DNA from: Malacoraja senta
Lineage: Eukaryota
Direction of reading: 5' to 3'
NCBI GenBank assembly: GCA_038087875.1
Contig: CM075977.1
Span: 330,956,001 to 331,020,000, forward strand
Length of the DNA stretch: 64,000 nucleotides
Shown here: one piece after another, positions 37,763 to 64,000 of the stretch
Numbering within the stretch: the first letter of the stretch is position 1
Layout of the letters: each line of letters begins with the position of its first letter
Position numbers and translations under genes: made by a program
The notes under the pieces: model-generated
Databases searched by the model: none
Told to the model about the DNA's origin: nothing
Seen by the model: the letters and a program-made list of their open reading frames with translations, nothing else

Positions 37763-38004
37763 NNNNNNNNNNNNNNNNNNNNNNNNNNNNNNNNNNNNNN
37801 NNNNNNNNNNNNNNNNNNNNNNNNNNNNNNNNNNNNNNNNNNNNNNNNNNNNNNNNNNNNNNNNNNNNNNNNNNNNNNNNNNNNNNNNNNNNNNNNNNNN
37901 NNNNNNNNNNNNNNNNNNNNNNNNNNNNNNNNNNNNNNNNNNNNNNNNNNNNNNNNNNNNNNNNNNNNNNNNNNNNNNNNNNNNNNNNNNNNNNNNNNNN
38001 NNNN
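37763..38004. other. Assembly gap (242 N)
   Basis: N run. Confidence 1.
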
Positions 38005-40022: not shown

Positions 40023-42429
40023 TTTTTTTTTTTTAATTTTATTTTTATTTTTTTATTTTATTAGAAGTAAGTACAATTGTATACAATCATATTTACATAA
40101 TACCTTTTATGTACAGCTTCTTATTTTTTAAATTTTTTTAAATAAAGAAGAAAAAGAAAAAAGTTAGATAATGAAAAATAGAAAAATGTGAGATATATAG
40201 TGTGTGAAAAACAAAAATAAAGAATGAAATAAGAAAGTTGAGACATAGAAAATAGAAGAGAGAGAATAAAAGAAAAGAAGAGAAGAAAAGAAAATAGAAG
40301 GAGATCATTTATAATCTTGACCATCCGCAGTCACGGATTAGCTTTTACACCTGTTTTGCACCATACGTTTCCAAAAAGACGACAAATGGAGACCAACTCG
40401 TTATGAATTGGTCAAATTTATCTATTAGGAGGAATCGCATTTCCTCAAGATGTGCGGTATCCAACATACTTGCAATCCACATTTTGAGCGTTGGTATTGG
40501 TGTATTTTTCCAAAATTTCAATATTAATTTTTTTGCTATTATTAAACCATAATTAAAAATTGACTTTTGAGATGAGCTCAATTTGTTCCCGTCTTCCATT
40601 ACCCCAAATATAATCAATTCATTATTGGGTTCCATTTTTGTCTTAAATAGTTTTGTAAATATTTCGAAAATATCACTCCAAAATCCATGAAGTTTTATAC
40701 AAGAAACAAAAGAGTGTGTTATAGTTGCTTCTTGGGTTAAACATTTATCGCAAATGGGCGATATATTTGGATAAAATTTATTTAATCTTGTTTTTGAGTA
40801 ATATAATCTATGTAAAATTTTAAATTGGATTAGATTATGTCTTGCGTTAATCGAACACTTGTGAATGTATGTCAAATACTTTTCCCATGTAGCCTTCGTA
40901 ATTTTTATCAATAATTCCCGTTCCCACTCTTCTCTAATTACCTCGGTCACAGGTAAATCTATATTTAAGATACTATTATATAAATATGCTATTAATTTTT
41001 GTGTATCAGCTTTTATATTCATTACTTCTTCTAGTAAATCAGGAGTTATTTTTTGATATCCCTGTATGTATGTCTTCAAAAAATTACAAATCTGAAAATA
41101 TTTAAAATAATGAGTGTTTTTCAGTTTAAATTTTAATTGTAATTGTTGAAATGATAATAAATCTCCCATTTCATACATATCCCCGATCCTTTTAATTCCT
41201 AAACTTTCCCATTGATTATATATTTTATCCATCATAGATGGTTTAAATAAAGGATTATTCGCTATCGGTGTTAACAATGATAGGTTTCTTAATTTTAAGG
41301 ATAGTTTTATTTGTTTCCATATTCTTATTGTATCTTGTATAATTGGGTTTTTCTTATATATTGTATTGTTCATTTTTTTCGGGGAGAAGAGGATTGTTCC
41401 TATATTACAAGGATAACAATCCTCTTTCTCCATTTTTATCCATTCTGTCTGTTGAGTTGAACTATCCAACCAGTAAATTATATTCTTAATATGTATTGCC
41501 CAATAGTAATACAAAAAATTAGGGAGTGAAAGTCCCCCGACATCTTTTGGTTTACATAAGTGTTCTTTTTTAATTCTATGTGATTTGTAATCCCAAACAA
41601 AATTAGTAATATTAGCATTCAGTTTAGAAAAAAAATATTTTGGTACATATACTGGTATAGATTGAAATAGGTATAATAACTGTAGTAAGAAGCTCATTTT
41701 AATAGCATTTATTCTGCCTATTAATGATAAAGGGAGTGTTTTCCAAAATGTTATCATTATATTAAGTTTATTTATTAAGGGTATAAAATTAGCATTGAAT
41801 AAAGCTTTATGTTTTCTAGTAATCTGTATACCCAGATATTTAAATTTTTCTGTTGCTATTTTAAAGGGGAATTTCAATAAGTGTGTGGATTCTTGAGGTT
41901 TTAACGTCATAATTTCACTTTTGTTCCAGTTTATTCTATATCCTGAAAAGGACCCAAATTCCTCTATTAAATTTAATAAATTTGTTATGCTCGTTTGTGA
42001 ATTTGTTATATATAACAAAATATCGTCTGCATACAATGAAATTTTATTATTTGAGTCCCTAGTATTATAACCCTGAATATTCGGATGGCTTCTTATACTT
42101 TCAGCCAGAGGTTCTATCATAAGGGCAAATAGCAGGGGTGATAAAGCACATCCCTGCCTATTACCCCTTGATAATTGAATTTTTTGAAATAACATGCTGT
42201 TAGTTAATATTCTTGCCATCGGTTTATCATATAATAATTTCACCCATGCAATAAAATTCTCTCCCATATTAATTTTTTGTAATACTATGTATAAATACTG
42301 CCATTCTACCTGATCAAATGCTTTCTCTGCGTCCAAAGAAATAATTGCTGTCTTTTTCTTCCCTTTTATGTGAGTACATTATATTAAACAGGCGTCTCAA
42401 ATTATTAAATGAATATCTTTTGGGTATAA
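40023..42429 (-). mobile_element. L1-clade LINE, 5'-truncated, with poly(A) tail and 15-bp TSD
   Basis: T-rich tail at ~40021-40060; TSD AACTTGACGCCATTT at 40008-40022 and 42430-42444. Confidence 0.93.
40345..42336 (-). CDS. L1 ORF2 fragment: RT and C-terminal cysteine-rich domain, uninterrupted for 663 aa
   Basis: DAEKAFD, RGNRQGCALSPLLF, LYADD, YLGI, CDKC-x8-H-x4-C. Confidence 0.9.
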   Translation of the reverse strand: MDAEKAFDQVEWQYLYIVLQKINMGENFIAWVKLLYDKPMARILTNSMLFQKIQLSRGNRQGCALSPLLFALMIEPLAESIRSHPNIQGYNTRDSNNKISLYADDILLYITNSQTSITNLLNLIEEFGSFSGYRINWNKSEIMTLKPQESTHLLKFPFKIATEKFKYLGIQITRKHKALFNANFIPLINKLNIMITFWKTLPLSLIGRINAIKMSFLLQLLYLFQSIPVYVPKYFFSKLNANITNFVWDYKSHRIKKEHLCKPKDVGGLSLPNFLYYYWAIHIKNIIYWLDSSTQQTEWIKMEKEDCYPCNIGTILFSPKKMNNTIYKKNPIIQDTIRIWKQIKLSLKLRNLSLLTPIANNPLFKPSMMDKIYNQWESLGIKRIGDMYEMGDLLSFQQLQLKFKLKNTHYFKYFQICNFLKTYIQGYQKITPDLLEEVMNIKADTQKLIAYLYNSILNIDLPVTEVIREEWERELLIKITKATWEKYLTYIHKCSINARHNLIQFKILHRLYYSKTRLNKFYPNISPICDKCLTQEATITHSFVSCIKLHGFWSDIFEIFTKLFKTKMEPNNELIIFGVMEDGNKLSSSQKSIFNYGLIIAKKLILKFWKNTPIPTLKMWIASMLDTAHLEEMRFLLIDKFDQFITSWSPFVVFLETYGAKQV

Positions 42430-42659
42430 AACTTGACGCCATTTAGATAATAATCTGCCTTCCTGTTTTTGCTACCAAAGTGGAAAACCTCACATTTATC
42501 CGCATTAAACTTCATCTGCCATGCATCTGCCCACTCCCCCAACCTGTCCAAGTCACCCTGCATTCTCATAGCATCCTCCTCACAGTTCACACTGCCACCC
42601 AGCTTTGTGTCATCTGCAAATTTGCTAATGTTACTTTGAATCCCTTCATCCAAATAACT

Positions 42660-43234
42660 TCTGCAGACCCTGTCAATTAGGTGCAGAATGCATAGAATGG
42701 ATTGGATGAATGCAAACCAGAGATACACCTTGTAAATAATGTTGCAAAGCTTTACTTTGCTGAATGTTGATTGGATGAGGTATTGAGCCTTGTCTTGCAT
42801 ATCAGGGTAAATGTTGCGATATTTGCTTCCTCCGAGAAACACTGTTAGAATACAATGTATTAGCTACTGTATGATTGGGTTAGGGAAATGTCTATGGGGA
42901 TAATCGATATCTGCAATTGGATTGCAAAAAGACCACCCCCATGTGGTTCGGCCCCTCAAGGTCCGGGGACCTATTAAAGTCCGCTGCCACGAGGTCTTGC
43001 GTCGATCTTCTGGGAGAGCACTTGGGACTGCATGACCTTCTGGAGTGTCTCTGTTTGAGCGAGGCCTAGAGGGCTTGATCAGGCAGATACGAGGATCGAA
43101 CCCGCGGTGGTTTGGTACAGTAGTTGGAACTGTAATTGTGTTTTGTCAAAATAAAGATTAGTTGCGCAAGTGCTTGATTCAGTGGTTTTTGACTGAAACT
43201 AGACTGGGCGGAGGCTTAGAATGAGCAATTTACA
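42660..43234 (+). mobile_element. ERV 5' LTR (5' end missing at the CR1 junction)
   Basis: Homologous to ~57990-58578; several ATTGG boxes, TATA-like CTATTAAA at ~42971, AATAAA at ~43149; ends TTTACA. Confidence 0.9.
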
Positions 43235-43235
43235 T

Positions 43236-43253
43236 TGGGGGCTCGTCCGGGAT
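43236..43253 (+). promoter_or_regulatory. tRNA-Pro primer-binding site
   Basis: TGGGGGCTCGTCCGGGAT, identical to the MLV PBS-Pro; single-mismatch copies at 46288-46305 and 63859-63876. Confidence 0.95.
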
Positions 43254-44370
43254 CTCAACAGACCCCCAAACACAAGTTTTCGATCAAGGGTGTTGAGCTG
43301 TTTCGATCACGAGTGCAGAAATCGGGCCCACTGTGCGGTTTTCGTATTGAATTTCGGCACTTCGCTAGTCGGAGCGGATTGATGACTCGCACGCTTGGGA
43401 AACGGTCTAATGGAGATCATTAGAATAGAGTCTATCAAGCACAGGGGGGGGGGTGGTTAGCACTCCTTTGGTTTGGGGCCCCTAAAACAGGGTGTGGAGT
43501 GGCCGAAAACTTGGACGTAGTTGACAGACTGCAGCTGCTTTAACGAGAGCCTGACGTGCTTCATTGGGCGAGGTGTGGCCCAAGGTTAGATTTGGTATCC
43601 TATTGGCGGGGTAATGAAATACAGGTCTGGTCTATGTATCGATCTATCTTTGCCGGCAGCGCGGATTGGAAAGGTGTGCTCTGAAAATCGGCATCGACAA
43701 CTGCCAGCGCGAAGCGGCTAGGCGCTGAACCCCCCGTGCCCAGCAGAGAGGAATATCTGTGTGAAGGTGTCTGAGTCCCTTCTTGAAGTGACGTATGAGG
43801 AACCTCGTAAAGGTACTGGGTTCAGTTGTCAGAGTATAGATTGGCTGGGAATATTCTAGTCCATTCGAGAATTTAATTGGGCAATTTAGTTTAATTAGCG
43901 AGCCCGTGTATGTGGAGCACTAAAACTAGGAGTTCGAGAACGAGTCTAGATTTGCAGAATCAAATTTCCAAATATAGAATTTCACATTGAAGTTCTGCCC
44001 ATAAGGTAGAATTCGAATTCTTGTAGATAGAAATTCGGAGTTGGTGCATGTCCGTGATCAATTCCAAATAGCGGCTGATCAACAGTGAATAGTAACCCTC
44101 TGATCGATTGTTGATTAGTACCTGATAGCGAAGAGTACCTGAGAGATGGGAACCTGTTTACTTGGTGAAAAGTAATCCGAATAGCGAAGGGTACCCCTAA
44201 GTCTGTAGAACTTAGATAGGAGGGATAGAGGTCCCCCTATAGAAGTCCAGTCTTAGCAGAGGGATAGTAACATTCGGGAGGAAAAGTAGTCATTTAAGGA
44301 GTAGTACCCCTCAGCAAAGAGTAACCTAGGAAGGGGGAAATCTTCGGTACCAGAGGGAGAGGTTCACTGA

Positions 44371-44371
<1 letters not shown>

Positions 44372-44424
<53 letters not shown>

Positions 44425-44784
44425 TATTTTATTGTCATTGCACAGAGGTACAACGAGATTTGGTATGCAGCTTCCATCCGACGTAATAACTTAATTAACT
44501 TAAAATTTAGACACCCAGAGAGACAAGATTTAAAAAAAACACAGTAAAACAGTATAAAGTGCAAATAGGTCTGTGCCGGGTCGATGTGCGACGTGACCAT
44601 CCGAGGAAGACATTTCATGGGGGGGAGGGGAGGAGGGGGGGAAGGGGAGGGGGGGAGGGGGGAGGGGGGGAGGGGGGGGACTCAGCAGGGCCGGTTCAGA
44701 GCAGCTATAGCTCTGGGGATGAAGCTGTTCCTAAGTCTGGAGATGCGGGCGTAGAAGGCCATGTAACGTCTGCCGGAAGGCAAA
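44372..44784 (-). mobile_element. Rex1/Babar-like 3' fragment with (TAA)n tail in the ERV leader (duplicated at 47425-48445)
   Basis: LPSGRRYMAFYARISRLRNSFIPRAIALLN; G-rich tract; (TAA)n. Confidence 0.8.
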
Positions 44785-47423
44785 CACAGCATGACACGGT
44801 TGTCAAGATTGAGTGTTTGTAAACTGTGCGCTAGTGCTTTAAATCATTTTAGTAAATTGTAAAAATGTTTTGTATTGTTATCGGATCCAAATTGTATAAA
44901 TATTCCGTGTATGTAAACAAATTTAGAGTGTGTTAAGATTTAGAAAGTTAAGATTTAAAGTGTGTTAAGTTCACGGACCGTTGTTTATATTGCTGCTTGA
45001 GTGCGTCTTTACGGATTTAGATACGAAGTAAAAGTGTGTTTGAGTTAAATATTTGTAATTGTTTAGAGTGTAGTATTGTGAGAATCTGAGTCGTGGTGGT
45101 TCGATCAGGGATTGTACTCTTTCGAGCGGGGGAGGAGTCATTCCACTGACCGATTGCTCCATGAGGAGGATTTATTAGAGTGCGTGATTGATTTATAATA
45201 AACAAATGTTTGTGGTTTATGTAGGAGTGTGGTTGTGCCTGATAGTAATAGGTAGCATGTTATCCTGCTTGTGGACTGTGTTACTTGCATGTCTTAAGAT
45301 CATTTTCAGGTGTTTCGATTGAGGATTAAATGAGCGTGGGATTGTGTTTGATTGTGCTTGGATGTGTTTGATTGTTCGCTGGAGTACACTGATCCTTGAA
45401 TGACTGGGGATTGAGAAAGTTGTAAGGTTGAAAGGGTGTGGACTTGTGGGAGATAGGAGAAGAATTTGAATAGTAGAGTAGGATTGGTGGTGCAAAGGAG
45501 CAAAGAGTTGTGAGGCTGCGAAAGCTTTGAACCATTAGCCATTGTTTAAGAGCGAGCTTGATAAATTTAGGGATCAAAATGAAGGATTTAGGAATTCTGT
45601 TTTGGGTGTTCGGAAGCATGGGGAATAATGTGGATCGAGATGTGATCTTCTGAGGTAAATAGCCCATTGCAACTAATGTGTAATGAGGTCCCTCACAAAG
45701 CAGAGAAATTAAGAAATTATGAAATAAGCTATGGCTGCCGGGGGGGCATTAGAACAGTAAAAGGGATAAAATACATAGAACGGATTATTTGGCAGCATAG
45801 TAATAACGATAGTGCAAAAGAATTAATAGGGTTATGGAGAAAATATTATGAGGAACGGAAGGCAAATAAGGCGGTTAAGAGAATGGCTAGTTGTGAAAAA
45901 GCGATCGCTAAACTCGGAATAGAACTAAAAGAAGGTGAAGTAGATCGACCTCCAGGCAGTAGAAGGACAGGAGTGGAGATGAAGAGAAACACACAGAACA
46001 AGGGAAAGTTAGATCTCCTGGAAGGAAATTAGTCCCTGTAGAATTAAAGATTAGGAATCCGATGGTTAGTGCTGACTTCGAGGGGGAAGGAGATGAATAT
46101 TCGGAAGAGTGGACAAATGTTAACGATAGTCGAAGTTCGCAGCTCCCACCATGTTCCTCTTGCATTTCTCAGTAGTTGGAACTGTAATTGTGTTTTGTCA
46201 AAATAAAGATTAGTTGCGCAAGTGCTTGATTCAGTGGTTTTTGACTGAAACTAGACTGGGCGGAGGCTTAGAATGAGCAATTTACATTGGGGGCTCATCC
46301 GGGATCTCAACAGACCCCCAAACACAAGTTTGCGATCAAGGGTGTTAAGCTGTTTCGATCACGAGTGCAGAAATCGGGCCCACTGTGCGGTTTTCGTATT
46401 GATTTTCGGCACTTCGCTAGTCGGAGCGGATTGATCACTCGCACGCTACGGAAAGGGTCTAATGGAGATCATTAGAATAGAGTCTATCAAGCACGGGGGG
46501 GGGGGTGGTTAGCACTCCTTTGGTTTTGGGGCCCATAAAACAGGGTGTGGAGTGGCCCAAAACTTGGACGTAGTTGACAGACTGCAGCTGCTTTAACGAG
46601 AGCCTGACGCGCTTCATTGGGCGTTGTGTGGCCCAAGGTTAGATTTGGTATCCTATCAGCAGGGTAATGAAATACAGGTCTGGTCTACGTATCGATCTAT
46701 CTTTGCCGGGAGCGCGGATTGGAAAGGTGTGCTTTGAAAATCGGCATCGACAACTGCCAGCGCGAAGCGGCTAGGCGCTGAATCCCCCGTGCCCAGCAGA
46801 GAGGAATATCTGTGTGAAGGTGTCTGAGTCCCTTCTTGAAGTGACGTATGAGGAACCTCGTAAAGGTACTGGGTTCAGTGGTCAGAGTATAGATTGGCTG
46901 GGAATATTCTAGTCCATTCGAGAATTTAATTGGGCAATTTAGTTTAATTAGCGAGCCCGTGTATGTGGAGCACTAAAACTAGGAGTTTGAGAACTAGTCT
47001 AGATTTGCAGAATCAAATTTCCAAATACAGAATTTCACATTGAAGTTCTGCCCATAAGGTAGAATTCGAACTCTCGTAGATAGAAATTCGGAGTTGGTGC
47101 ATGTCCGTGATCAATTACAAATAGCGGCTGATCAACAGTGAATAGTAACCCTCTGATCGATTGTTGATTAGTACCTGATAGCGAAGAGTACCTGAGAGAT
47201 GGGAACCTGTTTACTTGGTGAAAAGTAATCCGAATAGCGAAGGGTACCCCTAATGCTGTAGAACTTAGATAGGAGGGATAGAGGTCCCCCTATAGAAGTC
47301 CAGTCTTAGCAGAGGGATAGTAACATTTGGGAGGAAAAGTAGTCATTTAAGGAGTAGTACCCCTCAGCAAAGAGTAACCTAGGAAGGGGGAAATCTTCGG
47401 TACCAGAGGGAGAGGTTCACTGA

Positions 47424-47474
<51 letters not shown>

Positions 47475-47789
47475 TATTTTATTGTCATTGCACAGAGGTA
47501 CAACGAGATTTGGTATGCAGCTTCCATCCGATGTAATAACTTAATTAACTAAAAATTGAGACACCCAGAGAAACAAGATTAAAAAAAAACACAGTAAAAC
47601 AGTATAAAGTGCAAATAGGTCTGTGCCGGGTCGATGTGCGACGTGACCATCCGAGGAAGACAGTTCATGGGGGGGAGGGGGGGGAGGGGGGGAGGGGGGG
47701 AGGGGGGAGAGGGGGAGGGGGGGAGGGGGGGGGGACTCAGCAGGGCCGGTTCAGAGCAGCTATAGCTCTGGGGATGAAGCTGTTCCTAA

Positions 47790-48392
47790 TAGCCGTGTCT
47801 TACCTGTTTGCGGTCATCGGCGGTGAAGCGCGGCATCGCCGGTAGCGAGGACCGCGCGGCAACTGCGAGAGCGTCGAGCCTATCCACCGGAGCGCCGCAC
47901 GGATGTTGCGCGGGGGCCGAGTTAATTCAAACACGGCGGGTCCCACGTGCTTGCGGTAAGTAAAAAAAGGGCGGGCCGACTGCGATGACGTCGGCCCCCC
48001 GCACGTGACTCACCAGCGGCGGCTGTGGCGGCGGCCATCCTGATCGCGGCGCTGTAGCGGTGGCTGTGCCTGCGGCCGCGCAGCACACGTGCCTCACTGG
48101 CGGCGGCACGTGCGTCACTGGCGGAGGCTGTGGCAGAGGAGGTTTGACGCACGGCGCTCGACCCACACTGGCGGCGGCCCGTGCGAGCGGCCGTGCGCAC
48201 TCGTGCATCACTGGTGGAGGTTGTGCGGTGAGTATAGTGTTTTCGACATTGTCGATTTTATTTTTGCACCGCGCGGTGTTGGGAACACCGTCGCACGGCC
48301 CGGGAATTGTTCTTTCTCACGAGTGCGCGGTCTATGGCGGCAGATTCTTCCCGTTTCGCCGCCAATGACCGCAGATTCGTGAGACAGACCTT
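47790..48392. mobile_element. GC/CpG-rich Harbinger-type MITE present only in duplicate copy 2
   Basis: Empty site CCTAAGTC in copy 1; TAA duplicated (47787-47789, 48393-48395); imperfect TIRs. Confidence 0.82.
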
Positions 48393-50619
48393 TAAGTCTG
48401 GAGATGCGGGCGTAGAAGGCCATGTAACGTCTGCCGGAAGGCAAACACAGCATGACACGGTTGTCAAGATTGAGTGTTTGTAAACTGTGCGCTAGTGCTT
48501 TAAATCATTTTAGTAAATTGTAAAAATGTTTTGTATTGTTATCGGATCCAAATTGTATAAATATTACGTGTATGTAAACAAATTTAGAGTGTGTTAAGAT
48601 TTAGAAAGTTAAGATTTAAAGTGTGTTAAGTTCACGGACCGTTGTTTATATTGCTGCTTGAGTGCGTCTTTACGGATTTAGATACGAAGTAAAAGTGTGT
48701 TAGAGTTAAATATTTGTAATTGTTTAGAGTGTGGTATTGTGAGAATCTGAGTCGTGGTGGTTCGATCAGGGATTGTACTCTTTCGAGCGGGGGAGGAGTC
48801 ATTCCGCTGACCGATTGCTCCATGAGGAGGATTTATTAGAGTGCGTGATTGATTTATAATAAACAAATGTTTGTGGTTTATGTAGGAGTGTGGTTGTGCC
48901 TGATAGTAATAGGTAGCATGTTATCCTGCTTGTGGACTGTGTTACTTGCATGTCTTAAGATAATTTCAGGTGTTTCGATTGAGGATTAAATGAGCGTGGG
49001 TTTGTGTTTGATTGTGCTTGGATGTGTTTGATTGTTCCCTGGAGTACACTGATCCTTGAATGACGGGATTGAGAAAGTTGTAAGGTTGAAAGGGTGTGGA
49101 CTTGTGGGAGATAGGAGGAGAATTTGAATAGTAGAGTAGGATTGGTGGAGCAAAGGAGTAAAGAGTTGTGAGGCTGCGAAAGCTTTGAGCCATTAGCCAT
49201 TGTTTAAGAGCGAGCTTGATAAATTTAGGGATCAAAATGAAGGATTTAGGAATTCTGTTTTGGGTGTTCGGAAGCATGGGGAATAATGTAGATCGAGATG
49301 TGACAGAAGAGGAAAATAGCCCATTGCAACTAATGTGTAATGAGGTCCCTCACAAAGCAGAGTAATTAAGAAATTATGAAACAAGCTATGGCTGCCGGGG
49401 GGGCATTAGAACAGTAAAAGGGATAAAATACATAGAACGGATTATTTGGCAGCATAGTAATAACGATAGTGCAAAAGAATTAATAGGGTTATGGAGAAAA
49501 TATTATGAGGAATGGAAGGCAAATAAGGCGGTTAAGAGAATGGCTAGTTGTGAAAAAGTGATCGCTAAACTCGGAATAGAACTAAAAGAAGGTGAAGTAG
49601 ATCGACCTCCAGGCAGTAGAAGGACAGGAGTGGAGATGAAGAGAAACACACAGAACAAGGGAAAGTTAGATCTCCTGGAAGGAAATTAGTCCCTGTAGAA
49701 TTAAAGATTAGGAATCCGATGGTTAGTGCTGACTTCGAGGGGGAAGGAGATGAATATTCAGAAGAGTGGACAAATATTAACGCTAGTGAAAGTTCGCAGC
49801 TCCCACCATGTTCCTCTTGCGTTTCCCAGGCTTCACTAGCACCGTGTATGACTTGTGTCTGTAATAAATATTGTAGGTCTGCATAATCTATAACAACTCC
49901 TGCAGTTTCTACATCTGAACAGATTCTACCAAAAGCAGATACTGGGGTACCAGATTCTTCGAACCTATCCACGCCATCATTGATAGATTGTCCAGTGGCT
50001 TATGGCACGCGGAGTAGAATGAAAAGGTTAGCTCCGGTGTTTAAAGAAAAGGAAGTTATGTTAGATATAGTGCCAGAGTATTTCTGTGAGCCACAACCTA
50101 GACAGATTACACTAGTAAGAAAGAGGAACAATTTATTTGGGCAGTATCGGGAAACCCCTAGCGAACGGAAAGATTCATCTGAGGGTGAGACAGTGATTGA
50201 AGATACCGAGATAGATTTTGACATAACCGAGAGTTTACAAATTAAACAGATATCCCATAGGCAGTTCCCAGTAAGGGAAGGGCTGGGTACAGCAGATTCG
50301 ACCAGCGCAGTAAGTATGAATAATCCCCGTGCCACAGACGTCCATACTCCGTGGAAGCCCCATGACATAATGGCAGTATGAAACAGAATCCACGATAGGA
50401 AGAAGTCTGCTGCTGCCTTTATAGATTACTAGAATAAATGGGACCCATTGGGACCCATGTTCACACGAGGGGGCTGGTCCCCCAATGCAATATTCCACCT
50501 CTCCACCAATTCCAATATTGGTGGCCAGTGGGGGGGGGCATTCTGGAATGCTAGTATGGGTGTTGTGGGCCAAAGTGACTGGTTTCCAGAGGGCTAGTAT
50601 GGTCATTATGGGCTGGAGG

Positions 50620-50985
50620 TTCAGTCACTCAGGCCAAGTGGGCTGGCAGCTCAGGCCTGGTAGGCTGGCAGCTCAGTCACTCAGGCCTGGTGGGCTGGCA
50701 GCTCAGTCACTCAGACCTGCTGGGCTGGCAGCTCAGTCACTCAGGGCTGGTGGGCTGGAAGCTCAGTCACTCAGGGCTGGTGGGCTGGCAGCTCAGTCAC
50801 TCAGGGCTGGTGGGCTGGCAGATCAGTCACTCAGTCCTGGTGGGCTGGCAGCTCAGTCACTCAGGCCTGCTGGGCTGGCAGCTCAGTCACTCAGGGCTGG
50901 TGGGCTGGAAGCTCAGTCACTCAGGGCTGGTGGGCTGGCAGCTCACACTCAGGGCTGGTGGGCTGGCAGATCAGTCACTCAGGTC
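50620..50985. repeat. 30-bp minisatellite
   Basis: GCTCAGTCACTCAGGGCTGGTGGGCTGGCA, ~12 units. Confidence 0.95.
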
Positions 50986-51004
50986 CACCCATGGCTATTC
51001 CTTG

Positions 51005-51363
51005 AAATTCCATTTCAAGCAGAGTGCTGGCCACCAAATTCAATTTCATAGTATTTCAAGCAGCGCGCAGGCCACCAAATTCAATTTCATAGCATTTCAA
51101 GCAGAGTGCAGGCCACCAATTTCAATTTCATTGCATTTCAAGCAGAGTGCAGGCCAAATTCAATTTCATAGCATTTCAAGCAGAGTGCAGGCCACCAAAT
51201 TCAATTTCATAGCATTTCAAGCAGTGTGCAGGCCACCAAATTCAATTTCATAGCATTTCAAGCAGAGTGCAGGCCACCAAATTCAATTTCATAGCATTTC
51301 AAGCGGAGTGCAGGCCACCAAATTCAATTTCATAGCATTTCAATCAGAGTGCAGGCCACCAAA
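51005..51363. repeat. 41-bp minisatellite
   Basis: GGCCACCAAATTCAATTTCATAGCATTTCAAGCAGAGTGCA, ~9 units. Confidence 0.95.
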
Positions 51364-51607
51364 TTGCCAAACAACTCATTGCATTGTCATTAAGGATGAA
51401 CAAATCATTTATTACAAGTACATTGCAGACTCACAGTTGAGTTGATTCACAGCTTAGAATCACAGTTGTGGATTCTCCCTCACGATCTTCCAGAGTGAAT
51501 GACTCCAGGCATCCGGGGTTTTATAGTCCTGCCAACCCCCCCACCCCCCGGTAGGGGCTTTACCTTAATCATGGTGATTAACAGGCGAGAGGTCCAATCA
51601 GCTGATC

Positions 51608-52587
51608 TCAATAGACAATAGACAATAGACAATAGGTGCAGGAATAGGCCATTTGGCCCTTCGAACCAGCACCACCATTCAATGTGATCATGGCTGATAA
51701 CCCCCAATCAGTACCCTGTTCCTGCCTTCTCCCCATATCCCCTGACTCCGCTATTTTTAAGAGCCCTATCTGGCTCTCTCTTCAAAGCATCCAGAGAACC
51801 CGCTTCCACCGCCCTCTGAGGCAGAGAATTCCACAGACTCACAACTCTCTGTGAGAAAAAGTGTTTCCTCGTCTCCGTTCTAAATGGCTTACTCCTTATT
51901 CTTAAACTGTGGCCCCTGGTTCTGGACTCCCCCAACATCGGGAACATGTTTCCTGCCTCTCGCGTGTCCAAGCACTTAACGATCTTATATGTTTCAATGA
52001 GATCATCCTCTCATCCTTCTAAACTCCAGAGTGTACAAGCCCAGCTGCTCCATTCTCTCAGCATATGACAGTCCCGCCTTCCCGGGAATTAACCTTGTAA
52101 ACCTACGCTGTACTCCCTCAATAGCAAGAATGTCCTTCCTCAAATTAGGGGACCAAAACTGCACACAATACTCCAGGTGTGGTCTCAATAGGGCTCTGTA
52201 CAACTGCAGAAGGGCTTATTTTCTCCTATATTCGATTCCTCTTGTTATAAAGGCCAACATGCCATTCACTTTCTTCACTGCCTGCTGTACCTCCATGCTT
52301 ACTTTCATAGACTCATGTACAAGGACCCCCAGATCCCGTTGTACTTCCCCTTTTCCCAACTTGACGCCATATAGAAAGTAATCTGCCTTCCTGTTTTTGC
52401 TACCAAAGTGGATATCCTCACATTTATCCACATTAAACTTCATCTGCCATGCATCTGCCCACTCCCCCAACCTGTGCAAGTTATCCTGCATTCTCATAGC
52501 ATCCTCCTCACAGTTCACACTGCCACCCAGCTTTGTGTCATCTGCAAATTTGCTAATATTACTTTGAATCCCTTTATCCAAATCATT
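51608..52587 (-). mobile_element. Young CR1 nested in the Helitron
   Basis: KFADDTK...RPHLEYCVQFWSP; (GACAATA)n tail. Confidence 0.92.
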
Positions 52588-52829
52588 GATTTTTTAAACA
52601 CTCATAACTTTTTTTTTCATCGATCAGAAAAACCCTCGGGGTTGCCTCAGCGGAGGACTGTGAGTAAGATGACCAAAAATTATAGCGATATATGGTAGCG
52701 TTTTTTCTAAAATCAATATACAGCGCAGACATGAAGTGGTCTAGATGAGACTTTTAGTTATATAGTTTTAAGAACCACAATGCGTGTATATCATGCAGGT
52801 TCCCGGGATTTGTGGGAGACCATACAACA

Positions 52830-55120
52830 GATCAATCAATCAATCAAAGACTTTATTGTCATTCAAAAATACACCAACAAATGCGTCTGAATGAAATTTC
52901 ATTGCATCTGGCTCACCGTGCAACATAAAATAACAAAAGGATAAAATAGATAAAAAGATAAAATAGATAAAAAGATAAAATAGATAATAGTGGCGGCACA
53001 TTATATAGAATTCAAGAATCTGATGGCTCGGGGGAAGAAGCTGTTGCAAAACCTGGCTATTCTGCTCCTTATACTGCGATACCTTTTGCCCGAGGGCAGC
53101 AGAGTGAACAGTCCATGATGGAGATGTGTGGGGTCTTTTATAATGCTGTTGGCCTTGGACAAACAATGTGTGCACGCAATGTCCCGGATTGAAGGAAGAG
53201 AAGTCCCGATGATTTTTTCAGCCGTCCTCACCACTCTCTGCATAGACTTCCAGTCGGAGGCTTTACAGTCCCCAAACCAGACAGAGATGCAGCTGGTCAA
53301 AATGCTCTCGATGGTGCCCCTGTAGAAAGTGGTGAGGACGGGATGGGGGAGGTGAGCTCTCCTCATCCGGCGCAGAAAGTGCAAACGTTGCTGCGCTCTC
53401 TTAACTAGTGATGCAATGTTTTGTGACCAGGTCAGACTGTTCGTGATCTGCACCCCCAGGAACTTAGTGCTACTGACCAACTCCACATCAATGTCATTAA
53501 TGTGTAGTGGTGCGTGACTGTGCCGGTTTCTCCTGATGACCTCCTTTGTTTTGTCAACATTCAGGATCAGATTGTTCGTGTTGCACCAGTCCACCAGTTG
53601 TTTCACCTCCTCCCTGTAAGCCAGTTCATTGTCGTCCCTGATAAGACCCACCACTGTTGTGTCATCTGCGTACTTCATGATGTGGTTTGTACTAAACCTG
53701 GCACAACAGTCGTGGGTCATCAGGGTAAACAGCAGTGGACTCAGGACGCAGCCCTGAGGGAACCGGTGCTCAGAGAGATGATGTTGGAGGTGTTGTTTCC
53801 AACCCGCACTGACTGGGGTCTGTCAGTGAAGAAGTCCAGTAGCCAGTTACACAAGGGGGTGCTGAGGTCCAATGAACCCAATTTGCTTACCAAGTGCTGA
53901 GGGGTGATTGTATTGAATGCTGAACTAAAGTCCACGAACAGCATTCGCACATATTTGTTCTTCTCCTCTAGATGTTCCAGGCTCAGATGGAGTACGGAGG
54001 ATATGGCGTCCTCTGTAGAGCAGTTTGGCCTGTAAGCAAACTGGAACGGGTCAAGTGTGGAGGGGAGTCTGGAGGTAATATGGTCCCTGACCAGCCTCTC
54101 GAAGCACTTCATCATTATGGGAGTGAGTGCTACAGGGCGGTAATCGTTGAGACATGTTATTGCGGATTTTTTTGGCACTGGTATGATGGTGGCAGTCTTG
54201 AAACACGATGGGACAACAGCCTGGTTCAGTGAGGTGTTGAAGATGTCAGTAAGGACATGCGCCAGCTGATCAGCACATTTCCTGAGCACCTGGCCTGGTA
54301 TGTTATCAGGGCCTGCCGCCTTCCGTGTGTTCACTCCTTTTATGGTCCTCCGAACATCCACTGTATCAAGACTGAGTGCCTGTTCATCATAGTGAGGAAT
54401 GCCTTTTCTCGCAGGTGTGTTGTTGAATGCCTCAAACCGTCCAAAATATTTATTGAGTTCATTGAGGAAGTTTATGTTGTCTTCACAGGGTGGTGGAGCA
54501 GTCTTATAGTCCGTGATGGTTTGGATTCCCTGCCACATGCGCCTGGTGTTCATGGGGTCATGAAAGAAGCTCTGGATTTTCTGACCATGGGCACACTTTG
54601 CCAGCCTGATGACTCGGTTCAGGTTGGCTCTTGCGGATCTGAGTGCCACCAAGTCACTGGATTTGAACGCGGTATTTCGTGCTCTCAGCATACCACGTAC
54701 CTCAGGGGTCATCCAGGGTTTCTGGTTGGCCCGTATAGTGAAGGTCTTGGTGACACAGACATCCTCTATGCACTTTTCCATGTAAGCAGACACAGACGCA
54801 GCATACTCCTCCAGGTTGGTGTGTTGATTGTCAGTTGCAGCCTTCTTGAACATGTCCCAGTCCGTGCACTCAAAGCAGTCCTGTAATGCTGTCATAGCTC
54901 CCTCTGGCCAGACCCTAACCTGCTTCACAGTAGGTTTTTCTCAGGTAAGCAGGGGCCTGTATGCAGGAATTAGCATCACAGAGATATGGTCTGAGCCAAG
55001 ATGTGGGTGGGAGGGACTGCCTTGAATGTCTTCTTAATGTTTGTATAGGCTAGGTCCAGTGTGTTCACTCCCCTGGTTGCAAAGTCCACATGCTGGTAGT
55101 AATGTGGGAAAACTGTCTTC
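52830..55120 (-). mobile_element. Rex1/Babar LINE, 5'-truncated, RT nearly intact (one frameshift at ~53750)
   Basis: ORFs 53741-54928 and 53001-53720: KAAGPD, YRPVALT, VDFSSAFNTI, KYADDT, FLGV; (TTGA)n tail. Confidence 0.92.
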
Positions 55121-57909
55121 ATGATAATTACTCCAGCTGAAAATACCAAATTTCTAGTAGCCCTAGGACACCCAACTTATGAAGTCTTGGCAAACGTAGT
55201 AATGAATGACAGTGCAAGAGATGAGGCTGTTTTAATGGCCCTTGCAAAAACGTTTCAGAAACCAGGCGATTTAAAACGAGTTCTGGAAATAAAACCAGAA
55301 AAGGGTGAAGGAGCAGACGAATTTCTAGACGCTTTTTGGATTTAATTAAAACTGATAACAGAAACTGGTCTGAGAACCGAGCCAGTCAATTAGCCAGAGC
55401 TGTGAGGCACTATTGGAAGGAGGGTAGGAACCAGGAAAATTACCCTGTAACTAGAAGAGAAAGTGAATGCATAGCCAAGAAAGAAATGCCAAGATCTAAC
55501 TCAGAACCATGGATTCCCGATTGAGAGAAATTAGGGTCACAGATCACTCAGATTATTATCACCACTACACTCCTAATTTAGAACCCATTCCAATGAAACC
55601 AAGAGGTAGAATAAGACCAACCATGTTGCCTAATCAATGCTATACTTGTGGGGGAATGGGACATTGGAGTCGGGCCTGTCCAACAAAGGAGCGAGTGAGA
55701 GAGAGGGGTCAAATAAGGGATTTGCAGGATTACGAAGAAATTAGAAATCCTAGGGAATATAGAAACATCCGAGATCCGAGGAATTATGAGAGGTCCTTTA
55801 ATTCCAGAGCCTACTGGGACCCAACTGACCAGAGAGAGAGAGATGGCCTGAATGTCAGGAACCAAGAAGTCACACACCGTTCACTCAAGCTAACCCATTC
55901 TCTCAGCCTTGACTTACCAACCCATTCATGAATTGTGGGCATGGAGACATGACCCCTACTCTACAATCCCCTACAGTAATTTACCAGAATGAACTAATTG
56001 GATGTACTATTGTAGTAAAAACTGAAAATCACATAGAAGAAAATTGTAAACCATCTTATGACTACCCCAGAAAACCCCTCAGAGCAAAGAACATTGTAAA
56101 TCAAGGAGCTTGTTACAACTGTACCCAATTAGGTCATTGGAGCAAGGAGTGTCCAGCGAGAAGACAGAATATAGCAGGACGGAAGAAAAACCAAGGGGCA
56201 ATAAAGAAAGTAAGAAAAGGAACATAGTAACTGGTGAGAAGGAATGGTAACTAAGGAATGGAAATGGCACTAGGAAGAGAAGAAACAAATTTATTGTGCA
56301 GAAGGTACGGGAGTGGGGAAAGAAGTTATTATACTGACGTGTTACTGAGTTTGTGACTGCAGGACAGTATATCGACAACATACTATCTGGGGAGTGAGGT
56401 AAAGAATACACGGACCCCTTGAGAACGGGCAGAAGACACCAAAGGTAATGTAGCTCCCCAGAAACAGGAATCAACTAGCAGGAGGGAATGATACTGTCCT
56501 GCTCCTCAGTATCCCTACGCCCTTGAAAACACCAGAAATGAAGAAGAAGAAGAAGAAGAAAAAGTAGACCTACCCTAGTGCCCAACTTTAACATCATCTT
56601 GCTTTTGAAGAAAGAACAGGAAGGAAAGTAAAGGACACTATCTAATCTTCCCTAAAGAAACAACACTGACAACCTATAACGACTATTGGGACAAGCTCCG
56701 CTTTAAAAAACTGAATATTTAAAAAAACATTCCTCTGTGGTTTGGAGTAAAATACCTAATTTGCGTCTAAATTATGATTATTAGAAATAAATTTAGGAAA
56801 TGTTGGTTTCGGTCTCGAAATTGTATGGTAATTAATTGGAGGGAAATTTTGAGATTTGGAACAGACTTGTGAAATTTGGTTTAAGGATATTTGAAGTTTG
56901 ATTATTAATTGATATTGTTATTATCTCATCCCCAGACAGGCAGCCAAAGATGGGAAGGATTATTCAGAGGACATCAGGAAGGATGGAACATGGGAAGATC
57001 TGGTAACATGCAAATTATTCAGGGAATATGAGAGTTGGAATTAAAATTGGAATTAAAATTGGAATTGAAATTGAAATTGGAGTTAGAATTGGAAATGGTC
57101 AAAAGAGGAACTGTGAGCAGCAGGACTTCCCTTTAAGAGACCGGACTAGAAATTACTCAGTAGTCAGGAAGTAGTATAAGCGAGAATACCTAGACTGAGA
57201 ATGCAGCCAACATAGTAAGGAGTCAACATAAATAGGAAGAGGTACTGGTGGAGAAACCTAGTGAATTGTAGAGGGAGAAAATTTGAATGGGCGTAGGAAT
57301 AGCAGAGCTGATGCATATTTAACTGATGGATCTAAATTGTTTAACCCTTGATGGTAAAGCGGCTTCTATTATCAAGGTGGAAAGAAATTGTCCCCGGATT
57401 CGGCATTCTTAATTGGATTTATAATGAAATTTACAGCATATAGAAATTGATTGTTTAAATTTGAACAGCTGGGAATTCCACAGGAATTGGAATGGAATTG
57501 TGTTATCGGCCACAATGCTGTGGAATAAGAAGGATGAGATGGACTGAAACTTGAAATAGTAAATTGAAGGCTGAGACTGAATTTGGTTAAATTGGAACAT
57601 TTATCATGGTTTGCTTTAAATTAGAGTCATGCCTGTAGGGAAATCTGGACTGAACCCAGTTGAAATTTATATGAGAACCCTTCATCAGATATACATATTA
57701 TAACATCATGTGAATATGGAGAGGGCTGATCCAAGGATAATAAAGAGTATATTAGGGAACAGAATAGGAATAGGAACACAGTGATAGAACAGAACATAAT
57801 AGGTTTGATTGAAGTGGAATGTATGGGAAAGCAAGGGTGCATGATGGTAACTTGCTTTGTCCCAAGTTTTTCAGGAATTTTAGGTTATAGGTTCGACTAT
57901 GGAAAGGGA

Positions 57910-58578
57910 TGAAAGAAGCTTGTCTGCAGAAATGAGACTAGCTGCAGAATGGCCAGCCTAGATAAGAGTTGCAGGGAAAGAATGAGACATCTGCAGACCA
58001 TGTCAATTAGGTGTAAATTGCATGAAATGGATTGGGTGAATGCAAACCAGGCATAAACATTGTAAATATTGTTGCAAAACTTTACTTTGCTAGATGTTGA
58101 TTGGGTTAAGTGTTGAGTCTTGTCTGGTTTTCTTGCATATCAGGGTAAATGTTGCGATGTCTGCTTCCTCCGAGAAACACTGTTTGAATACAATGTATTA
58201 GCTACTGTATTATTGGGTTTGGGAAATGTCTGCCATGTATGGGGTTAATCGATATCTGTAATTGGATTGTAAAGAGACCACTCCCATGTGGTTCGGCCCC
58301 TCAATGTCCAGGGACCTATGAAAGTCCACTGCCACGAGGTCCTGCGTCGATCTTCTGGGAGAGCACTTGGGACTTTGGGACCTTCTGGAGTGTCTCTGTT
58401 TGAGCGAGGCCTAGAGGGCTTGATCAGGCAGATACGAGGATCGAACCCGCGGTGGTTAGGTACAGTAGTTGAATTGTAATTGTGTTTTATCAAAATAAAG
58501 ATTAGTTGCGCAAGTGCTTGATTCAGTGGATTTTGACTGAAACTAGACTGTGGGGAAGCTTAGAATGAACAATTTGCA
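57910..58578 (+). mobile_element. ERV 3' LTR (start approximate)
   Basis: Preceded by purine run GGAAAGGGA, starts TGAAAGA; homologous to the 5' LTR; ends TTTGCA; no PBS follows. Confidence 0.85.
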
Positions 58579-58813
58579 TGCCCATTGGGTCTGAGGAGAG
58601 GAAACGGCAGACAAAAGCAAAAATCAAAGTTCTGCAGGTACTCAACAGGTCAGGCCGCATCTGTGGAGGGAATGGATGGATGACATTTTGGGTTGGATTC
58701 CTTCTTCATACTGAAAGCTGGAAAGGAAAGCTGGCAGTGGAACAAACCTGACAAGTGATAGGTGGATACAGGAGAGGGGGAGACGCATGGAGATTGGCAG
58801 ATGGGCAGAGTAA

Positions 58814-62875: not shown

Positions 62876-63199
62876 ATAGGCATCAGTAATCCATGCCTAT
62901 TCATAGAGTACAGCTTGCATGCACCTAGATTGCAATCCTGATGTAAAACTATAGGCATGTTATATGTCAAAGGTATTGGTCCTAATAAACCGATTTTGAA
63001 TTTAGTACCACATACAGCATTTATAGCATTAAATCATGTAAGCGTTTCAGCCCCTCTAGAGAGGGCTGCTACAGATTTGACAGGAGTCAAAAAGAAAGAG
63101 CATGCTTTTTATTTTGTTAATTCTGGACAAATTTGAGATGTCTGGACACTAAAATTGAGTAAAGGCTTCTGGGCGGCTAGGCCATTTGGTCAATTTAAA

Positions 63200-64000
63200 T
63201 GTGCCTTCTGCAGAAAAGGGACAAGCTGCAGAATGGTGCTAGCTTGTCTGGAGCCTAGATAAGAGCTGCAGGGAAAGAATGGGACATCTGCAGGTTCTTA
63301 CAATTAGGTGCAAATTGCATGAAACGGATTGGGTGAATGCAAACCAGACATACACATTGTAAATATTGTTGCAAAGCTTTACTTTGCTGGATGTTGATTG
63401 GGTTAAGTGTTGAGCCGTGTCTGGGTTTCTTGAATATCTGGGTAAATGTTGCTATGTTTGCTTCCTTCCAGAAGCTCAGTTTGAATACAATGTATTGGTT
63501 ACTGTATTATTAGGGTTAGGGAAATGATTATCATGTACTGTGTTAATCGATATCTGTTATTGGACTGTATAGAGACCACCCCATGTGGTTCGGCCCCTCA
63601 AGGTTCGGGGACCTATAAAAGGTAGCTCCCACGAGGTCCTGTGTCAATCTTCTGGGAGAACGCTTAGGACTGCGTGACCTTTTGGGGTGTCTCTGCTTGC
63701 ACGATGCTAGGAAGGCTTGGATACAAGCAGATACAAGGATCGAACCCGCGGTGGTTAGGTATATTAATGGGTAACTGTTATTGTGTTTTTTCAGCTTGAC
63801 TCAGTATCTTATTGACGGAAACTAGACTGGAGAGAAGCGTAGAATGAGAAATTTACATTGGGGGCTCGTTCGGGATCTCAACAAATCCCCAAACATATTT
63901 GCGATTAAGGGTGTTGAGCTGTTTCAATCGCGAATGCAGAAATCGGCGCAACTATGTGGTTTTCGCATTGATTTTCGGCACTTCGCTAGTCGGAGCAGAT
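63200..64000 (+). mobile_element. Second provirus of the same ERV family: 5' LTR (ends 63857; start may be ~63115), PBS-Pro and start of leader
   Basis: Homologous to the 57921-58578 LTR; TATAAAA at ~63614; TGGGGGCTCGTTCGGGAT; leader homologous to 43254-43380. Confidence 0.88.

Follow-up and report, generated by a model that had tools for sequence, protein, structure and literature searches.

The window analysed here is a stretch of 64,000 nucleotides (nt) from the 1.94-Gb genome of Malacoraja senta (C1:330956001-331020000), and coordinates without a C1 prefix are positions within it. It contains a provirus with long terminal repeats (LTRs), an exact tRNA-Pro primer-binding site (PBS) and a broken gag gene. 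This provirus belongs to a family of endogenous retroviruses (ERVs) in which three layouts share the LTR, the PBS and a leader of ~1.9 kb: type P has the order gag-TGA-pro-pol, type A is the form seen in the window, and type B carries a different gag. The window copy is dead, because its gag has premature stops and frameshifts, and taken alone it is an ordinary remnant; what makes it interesting is the three-form family to which it led. Very probably it belongs to a form, with gag retained and pol decayed, of a class I elasmobranch ERV family that lacks env, and this form likely multiplied in germ cells on the enzymes of type P. The features of the provirus, and of a neighbour of the same type, are as follows.

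42657..43234 (plus): 5′ LTR; the first ~165 of ~770 nt are gone where a CR1-like long interspersed element (LINE) abuts
43236..43253 (plus): PBS, 18 nt, exactly complementary to the 3′ end of the host's tRNA-Pro(TGG) genes with CCA added
43254..45617 (plus): leader, common to types P, A and B, with an insert of ~410 nt (~44369-44780) opening with a (TAA)n array
45618..46169 (plus): 5′ end of gag, first copy (MG start), broken
46170..49829 (plus): tandem duplicate of the U5 end, PBS (46288, one mismatch), leader and gag start, 97-98% identical to 43118-46172
49276..50428 (plus): 5′ part of type A gag with MG start, matrix-like region, linker and capsid start (QFPVRE at 50262, VHTPW at 50340); premature stops and frameshifts
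50429..52757 (no strand given): insert 1 in the capsid, a Helitron-like repeat as judged from its end motifs, with two satellites and a CR1-like piece
52758..52832 (plus): 75-nt capsid coding piece between the inserts, 92% to the capsid of copy L102
52833..55122 (minus): insert 2 in the capsid, a fragment of a non-LTR retrotransposon with RVT_1 and ALKBH8_N matches on minus-strand frames
55123..55912 (plus): 3′ part of type A gag, the C-terminal half of the capsid, with a motif like the major homology region (MHR; 55292-55327), first zinc knuckle (55638-55679) and TGA stop (55910-55912)
55913..56227 (plus): 104-codon post-stop frame, in line with gag behind TGA-C, in the slot of the type P protease; ATG at codon 13, second zinc knuckle at 56111-56152 behind the gag stop
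56228..57909 (plus): decayed pol relic with an island from before the reverse transcriptase (RT; ~56340-56440), an integrase-core island (57303-57673) and the start of the 3′ untranslated region
57910..58578 (plus): 3′ LTR; the polypurine tract (PPT) and the first ~85 nt of U3 are missing, ~350 nt altogether
63115..64000 (plus): second type A provirus, with 5′ LTR, PBS (63859) and start of the leader, running on past the window

The preliminary description of this locus had listed the TTTACA end of U5 followed by the PBS, the match of the latter to tRNA-Pro, the MG start, the two capsid-start motifs, the MHR-like segment and a second provirus near 63 kb, all of which are present. A tandem duplication of 3 kb, the two zinc knuckles, the two inserts in gag and the clipping of both LTRs at their 5′ ends come in addition. 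Intact LTRs of the family measure ~770 nt, run from TGTTAAT to TTTACA and are accompanied by a purine-rich PPT, and comparison with such copies identifies TGAAAG at 57910, a candidate LTR start that was rejected, as a deletion junction. The two LTRs of the window copy are 89% identical, with a Kimura two-parameter distance of 0.090 over 578 columns. Among the tRNA-Pro pattern matches, ARAGORN found no tRNA at the first three and a tRNA at two of three further stretches.

Three layouts of one family

Exact TTTACA-T-PBS sites number 117 in the genome and 0 in the control. A 10-kb stretch was read at each of 56 of these sites (those listed on C1 and C2) and at each of 18 matches to the tail; the census excluded the window, its duplicate and, in three close pairs, the second member. 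Of the 56 stretches, the script labelled 17 as B, 15 as P and 12 as A; three had a P-type gag with no pol in view, and nine were unclassified. By hand, L100 was corrected to a short mosaic and L106 to type A, and L089/L090 were joined as one locus. Types A and B make up about two thirds of the classified copies. Exact 4-nt target site duplications (TSDs) flank nine of the 13 copies in which both ends are readable, and all nine are different. LTR divergence is 0.04-0.12 in all three types, once pairs of fewer than 200 columns, tandem duplicates and other families are set aside. With the substitution rate guessed for sharks in PMC4422223, this would correspond to ~100-200 million years; given the unsure rate, the age claimed is limited to tens of millions of years or more.

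The autonomous partner with the same LTR and PBS, for which the preliminary description had advised a search, exists in the form of type P. Its frames match the Pfam families RVP, RVT_1, RNase_H and rve, all four of which fall within the stretch read in seven copies, and the stop at the gag-pro junction is TGA in each of the six copies in which the motif was located. The genome holds at least 100 decayed RT matches, at 70-90%. No env was found in type P: in the five copies measured, only 270-320 nt separate the end of integrase from the 3′ LTR, and the longest stop-free runs in between are of 54-73 codons. That description must be corrected here in that the partner too is without env and a third, capsid-less form exists. 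Mosaic copies also occur: L068 joins a P gag and RT to a relic 3′ end, L077 has a B gag with the type A post-stop frame, and L100, a short copy, has a far better preserved relic and a basal position on the tree. Sister families, whose RT identity is 52-71%, have no LTR or leader in common with this one (4/4), which makes P the likely helper. Env-like frames occur in two of the three sister-family frames scanned, and some sister families are young. Gag_p30 (PF02093) was rejected as a probe, since it recovers another class I family (71 matches) with no LTR in common.

Placement of the family by RT relies on type P, type A having no usable RT. The P RT scores 257 bits against MLV-type RT, 117 against foamy virus, 85-88 against Ty3 and ~35 against HIV. 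The closest proteins, from Scyliorhinus, Heptranchias, Leucoraja and Amblyraja, are 66-74% identical, other class I rows lie at ~35-46%, and the database relatives appear only as ‘uncharacterized’ proteins. In a quick, midpoint-rooted tree, the RT joins a clade of seven elasmobranch rows with support of 100, outside the named MLV/PERV/REV gamma clade and among fish, amphibian and reptile class I rows, in a set that holds no named epsilonretrovirus. This position fits the description of clade Mu in PMC6001957, to which the family may belong. As regards the gamma/epsilon-like affinity first proposed, the RT is class I and not of Gypsy type, and it lies outside the named gammaretroviruses. Membership in Ty3/Gypsy is rejected by the RT scores and capsid matches, an ERV-L-like or lokiretrovirus ancestry by the class I RT of the partner, and membership in the gammaretroviruses (clade Jin) by the tree.

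Other characters agree with a class I ERV, namely TG..CA LTRs, a tRNA PBS, a PPT, a 4-nt TSD, and gag and pro-pol in one frame with a single stop; the env gene is the feature lacking in type P. A fold model of the type A capsid (copy L048, pLDDT 54) matches only HIV/SIV, MLV, HTLV and BLV capsids (probability ~1.0, best E 2e-3), and an Atlas search gave Gag_p30 as a lead at 0.88, so that the protein is predicted to be a retroviral two-domain capsid. Copies of type P have ~110 extra amino acids between protease and RT, with two HxT motifs and a possibly 2H-phosphoesterase-like character, also seen in skate and teleost relatives; the distance from protease to YxDD is 427 amino acids in a skate homologue against 306-320 in eight tetrapod rows, and the match of the stretch to LigT_PEase is weak (E 0.18).

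Selected gag frames and a decayed pol

Selection was assessed by comparing variants common to at least three copies, which date from the phase of spread, with private variants acquired after insertion, using the share that falls at codon position 3. In type A gag this share is 0.51-0.53 for shared and 0.32-0.35 for private variants (10 and 14 copies; p 0.011 and 0.00013), in type B gag 0.49 and 0.31 (29 copies; p 2e-9) and in the P RT 0.73 and 0.36. The relic, read in the integrase frame, gives 0.34 and 0.35 (32 copies; p 0.9), and leader and tail controls are flat. Pairwise ratios of nonsynonymous to synonymous change are 0.37 for A gag, 0.19 for the B N-terminal region, 0.15 for the B nucleocapsid part, 0.17 for RT, 0.36 for the post-stop frame, 0.93 for the relic and 0.62-0.70 for the non-coding leader; these pairs are non-independent and the non-coding baseline lies well below 1, which detracts from their force. 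Private gag variants look neutral and private frameshifts are numerous. Gag was under purifying selection during the spread of the family, and the relic was without coding constraint.

The tail of ~1.7 kb behind the type A gag had been described as free of pol motifs. This is mistaken as regards integrase: the tail is a decayed pol, in which 57303-57673 matches the integrase core of full-length P relatives at 64-67% of nucleotides (E 1e-27 to 1e-35) in five of eight long copies; a sixth copy has shorter matches, and copies whose read stopped short of integrase have none. The match scores 126 bits, whereas 100 shuffles gave 29.7 at most. The pre-RT island was mapped through better-kept short copies (five of seven stepping-stone copies), and the short copies agree in their islands and in the order of these. 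When the window tail was scanned with X at stops, Pfam and PDB returned zinc knuckles only, the relic being visible only against relatives. An apparent RNase H motif, YLTDGS at 57316, was rejected as a chance likeness, since it aligns to integrase in another frame, and a protease remnant seen by eye found no support; for the islands named ‘pro start’ and ‘RNase H end’ in some copies, no position in the window copy could be assigned. No hidden frame was detected in the tail and no reading-frame signal in the leader, and a search for a short 3′ open reading frame found none.

Outside the window, 15 places match the tail over 1.3-1.7 kb, 14 of them at 80-86% and one, the neighbouring duplicate, at 100%. 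The tree of the integrase island splits into a clade of seven of the eight P copies (100/100) and a clade, at 0.27 changes per column from P, of all 30 relics from A and B together with the recombinant L068. The A and B relics are intermixed within their clade, so that the relic has a single origin and was afterwards carried along by either gag. Against the intact frame it has 34 shared frameshifting indel events, so that pol is non-functional in a shared way across independent insertions. The claim that the pol-less layout marks a lineage and not a private deletion is borne out by these independent copies, by their single clade and by the constraint on gag.

The slot directly behind the gag stop differs between the types. 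In type P it is occupied by the protease, in frame after TGA, and in type A by the 104-codon frame with a second CCHC knuckle. This frame has at least 150 matches in the genome, many of them 104-105 codons long at only 57-75% identity. Among 55 copies, the stop is TGA-C in 52 and the four knuckle residues are kept in 52, 54, 43 and 51; shared frameshifts are absent from the frame, whereas the following 100 nt hold 12 shared events. As gag and pro are joined by UGA in SSSV and ZFERV (PMC13517186), readthrough of UGA, the inherited mechanism, is somewhat favoured as the mode of expression. Within 55888-55951, a branch-point-like, pyrimidine-rich sequence runs up to a CAG directly ahead of the gag stop, which is present in 45 of 58 copies, and the ATG at codon 13 is present in 53 of 58, with a purine at -3 in all 58. 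Judged from these motifs, CAG and ATG may represent a splice acceptor and a start codon, giving a possible spliced or re-initiated product. No splice joint was seen in two sequencing runs, which are probably of DNA.

The gag of type B has lost nearly all of the capsid. From the capsid-start motif to the knuckle it measures 240-270 nt in all eight copies with both motifs, against 839-850 nt in type A (three copies) and 842-870 nt in type P (five copies), and none of 20 further loci, chosen by a diverged B N-terminal region, matches either capsid probe. Selection on type B spans the N-terminal helices, the linker and the knuckle region; the capsid stub is not included. The sole database homologue is a Leucoraja erinacea protein, 56% identical and with the same short spacing. 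The N-terminus of B Gag is 30-44% identical to those of P and A, and this identity, with its position and the MG start, suggests a matrix-like region. A fold model of low confidence (pLDDT 40) shows N-terminal helices and disorder, and an Atlas search of B Gag gave no match.

Spread of the short forms and setting of the window copy

While internal regions remain type-specific, the LTRs of P, A and B are fully interleaved: the LTR tree requires 27 changes of type label, against a shuffled mean of 26.1, and trees with the LTRs of one type in one clade are rejected for P, A and B (p-AU 3e-54, 2e-6 and 9e-38). Interleaved LTRs and the mosaics L068, L077 and L100 form the pattern expected from co-packaging and template switching. 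Recombination between competent and defective forms has been reported for bovine ERVK (PMC10924933), and mosaic human ERVs formed by recombination are described in PMC4724089. Short RNAs would thus have been co-packaged with P RNA and Gag-Pol, and template switching would repeatedly have exchanged gag modules and LTRs. The probable reason for the retention of type A Gag is that it was useful in packaging its own RNA, and the post-stop frame would be an extra zinc-knuckle module, made by leakage at the inherited UGA or from an ATG of its own. Type B Gag, unable to build a shell, may have acted as a membrane-plus-RNA tether that loaded its own RNA into helper-built particles. Pol would then, as first proposed, have been borrowed in trans, presumably from the pol-bearing partner.

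Several observations weigh against this account. Every family copy examined is decayed, and no mobilisation, packaging or translation was observed. The LTR tree is built on 404 columns, and the position-3 test was not significant for P gag (nine copies) and P integrase (seven copies). Copies of the post-stop frame were collected with the frame itself as query, a bias towards intact ones; the codon-position signal of the frame is modest, with p 0.044 overall and no signal in codons 1-13, and was not significant in a first test on nine copies (p 0.08). The fold model of B Gag matched no matrix structure, only generic helices with Z up to 5.3.

Three other explanations have been considered. In a division of labour, A would have given Gag to particles that also carried P RNA, P and A forming a two-part system exploited by B. 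Type A does keep a full capsid under selection as strong as a working gag would show, and all types are similar in abundance and age; this reading is nevertheless improbable, as P has a full gag of its own with the same capsid-to-knuckle spacing (842-870 against 839-850 nt) and needs no partner. Somewhat less probable still is that the host kept the gag frames for a function in its own cells, a role that has been proposed for the Gag of zebrafish Bhikhari. This reading can appeal to the precedent of gag-only fish and chicken ERVs (PMC12067270) and to the type B-like protein annotated in L. erinacea, but the selection signal sits in variants shared between copies, those of the phase of spread, while private ones look neutral and private frameshifts are many, and no conserved intact locus was seen. 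The least credible reading, a private deletion or passive decay at this locus multiplied by segmental duplication or gene conversion, draws on a duplicate of the region, 99.4-99.95% identical, 73-75 kb downstream. It is refuted by distinct TSDs and shared relic islands, and it conflicts with dozens of copies on many contigs, with relics at 80-86% and with a single relic clade that is well removed from P.

Mobilisation of the short forms by type P is therefore retained as the preferred reading. A bolder extension, offered tentatively and with doubt, is a three-tier ecosystem in sharks and rays. Its helper would lack env, its gag-only passenger would have converted the protease slot to a second knuckle for RNA binding, and its third member would be a Gag without capsid, under selection over tens of millions of years as an adaptor acting in cis. 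If this were true, the adaptor would tether its own RNA to helper particles and would represent a Gag that works without a capsid.

Apart from these questions, the window records the later history of the copy. Its tandem duplication arose after integration, because the same (TAA)n insert is found in both copies, and an extra repeat of ~600 nt lies within the duplicate at 47790-48392. At loci L089/L090 and L098 a second PBS likewise follows ~3.0-3.1 kb past the first, with breakpoints that differ from those of the window. One end of insert 1 (satellites of 30 and 41 nt) carries CTAG and a hairpin, the other a TATATA-like motif; these ends, which recur in 11 and 15 of 218 loci, suggest a minus-strand, non-autonomous Helitron. 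The second type A provirus is 82-89% identical to the window copy in gag, has the relic tail and has its own LTR pair at 90% identity.

The downstream duplicate extends over at least 34 kb (C1:331059001-331093360, corresponding to 27554-64000) and is without 45799-47709; it is either a segmental duplication of very recent date or a haplotype artefact of the assembly. Beside the 5′ LTR, a 677-codon open RT frame with zf-RVT (40345-42378, minus strand), presumably L1/Tx1-like, is nested in a CR1-like element. In 1-42000, only LINE- and SINE-like (short interspersed element) repeats and one N stretch (37763-38004) were seen, and no host gene or Rfam match. The junction of the 3′ LTR with its flank (58523-58675) is spanned by a contig of one sequencing run with 0 differences in 137 nt, and in a run of another organism with 12 differences in 145 nt at a depth of 5.8, a weak hint that the insertion predates a species split. 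Parts of type A are covered in all four sequencing runs, from four organisms.

Relation to known systems

Chondrichthyan ERVs are thinly described, with three near-complete elements in the elephant shark (PMC4422223, PMC4977317), and pol-based screens miss forms such as A and B. The family provides a natural deletion series of the Gag parts that a non-autonomous element still needs, and both the selected capsid-less Gag and the nucleocapsid-like frame in the protease slot bear on how defective retroelements out-compete their helpers for packaging. In a search to which Repbase, Dfam, most subscription journals and supplements were external, no published account was found of a three-form family, a selected capsid-less Gag or a knuckle frame replacing protease.

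Gag-only non-autonomous ERV families are of a known kind, represented by MaLR, ENS-1, Bhikhari and TR-GAG. Zebrafish Bhikhari-1/-2 and chicken ENS-1/ERNI also consist of LTRs and a gag frame, with no pol or env (PMC12067270). They differ in being lokiretrovirus- or ERV-L-related and young, with a coiled-coil Gag, whereas the present family is class I and old, with CCHC knuckles, a relic of pol and a helper that resides in the same genome. TR-GAG and related plant elements keep GAG and lose the enzymes, some with decayed RT, RNase H and integrase, and their modules are reshuffled by template switching (PMC13570524); they are plant Copia and Gypsy elements, not retroviruses.

Among class I elements, the epsilon-like fish ERVs (WDSV, SSSV, ZFERV and CmiERV lineages II/III) resemble the family in their RT and in the single in-frame stop between gag and pro (PMC13517186), and a 2H domain is reported for WDSV (PMC9503650), as compared with the 2H-like stretch between protease and RT found here. 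This likeness is drawn from descriptions, not from sequence, and the present family has no env or accessory frames.

The mammalian ERVL-MaLR elements are likewise without pol and env, with a gag-derived internal region and an env-less autonomous relative (PMC11359688). They belong to class III, whereas here the helper shares its LTRs directly and there are two gag forms. In MusD/ETn, IAP I-delta-1, KoRV/recKoRV and bovine ERVK C/D, competent and defective morphs share LTR and PBS, recombine and are trans-complemented (PMC10924933). The middle of the present short forms is their own decayed pol and no foreign piece swapped in, and while the defective bovine form is described as having no intact frame, the defective forms of this family kept gag under selection.

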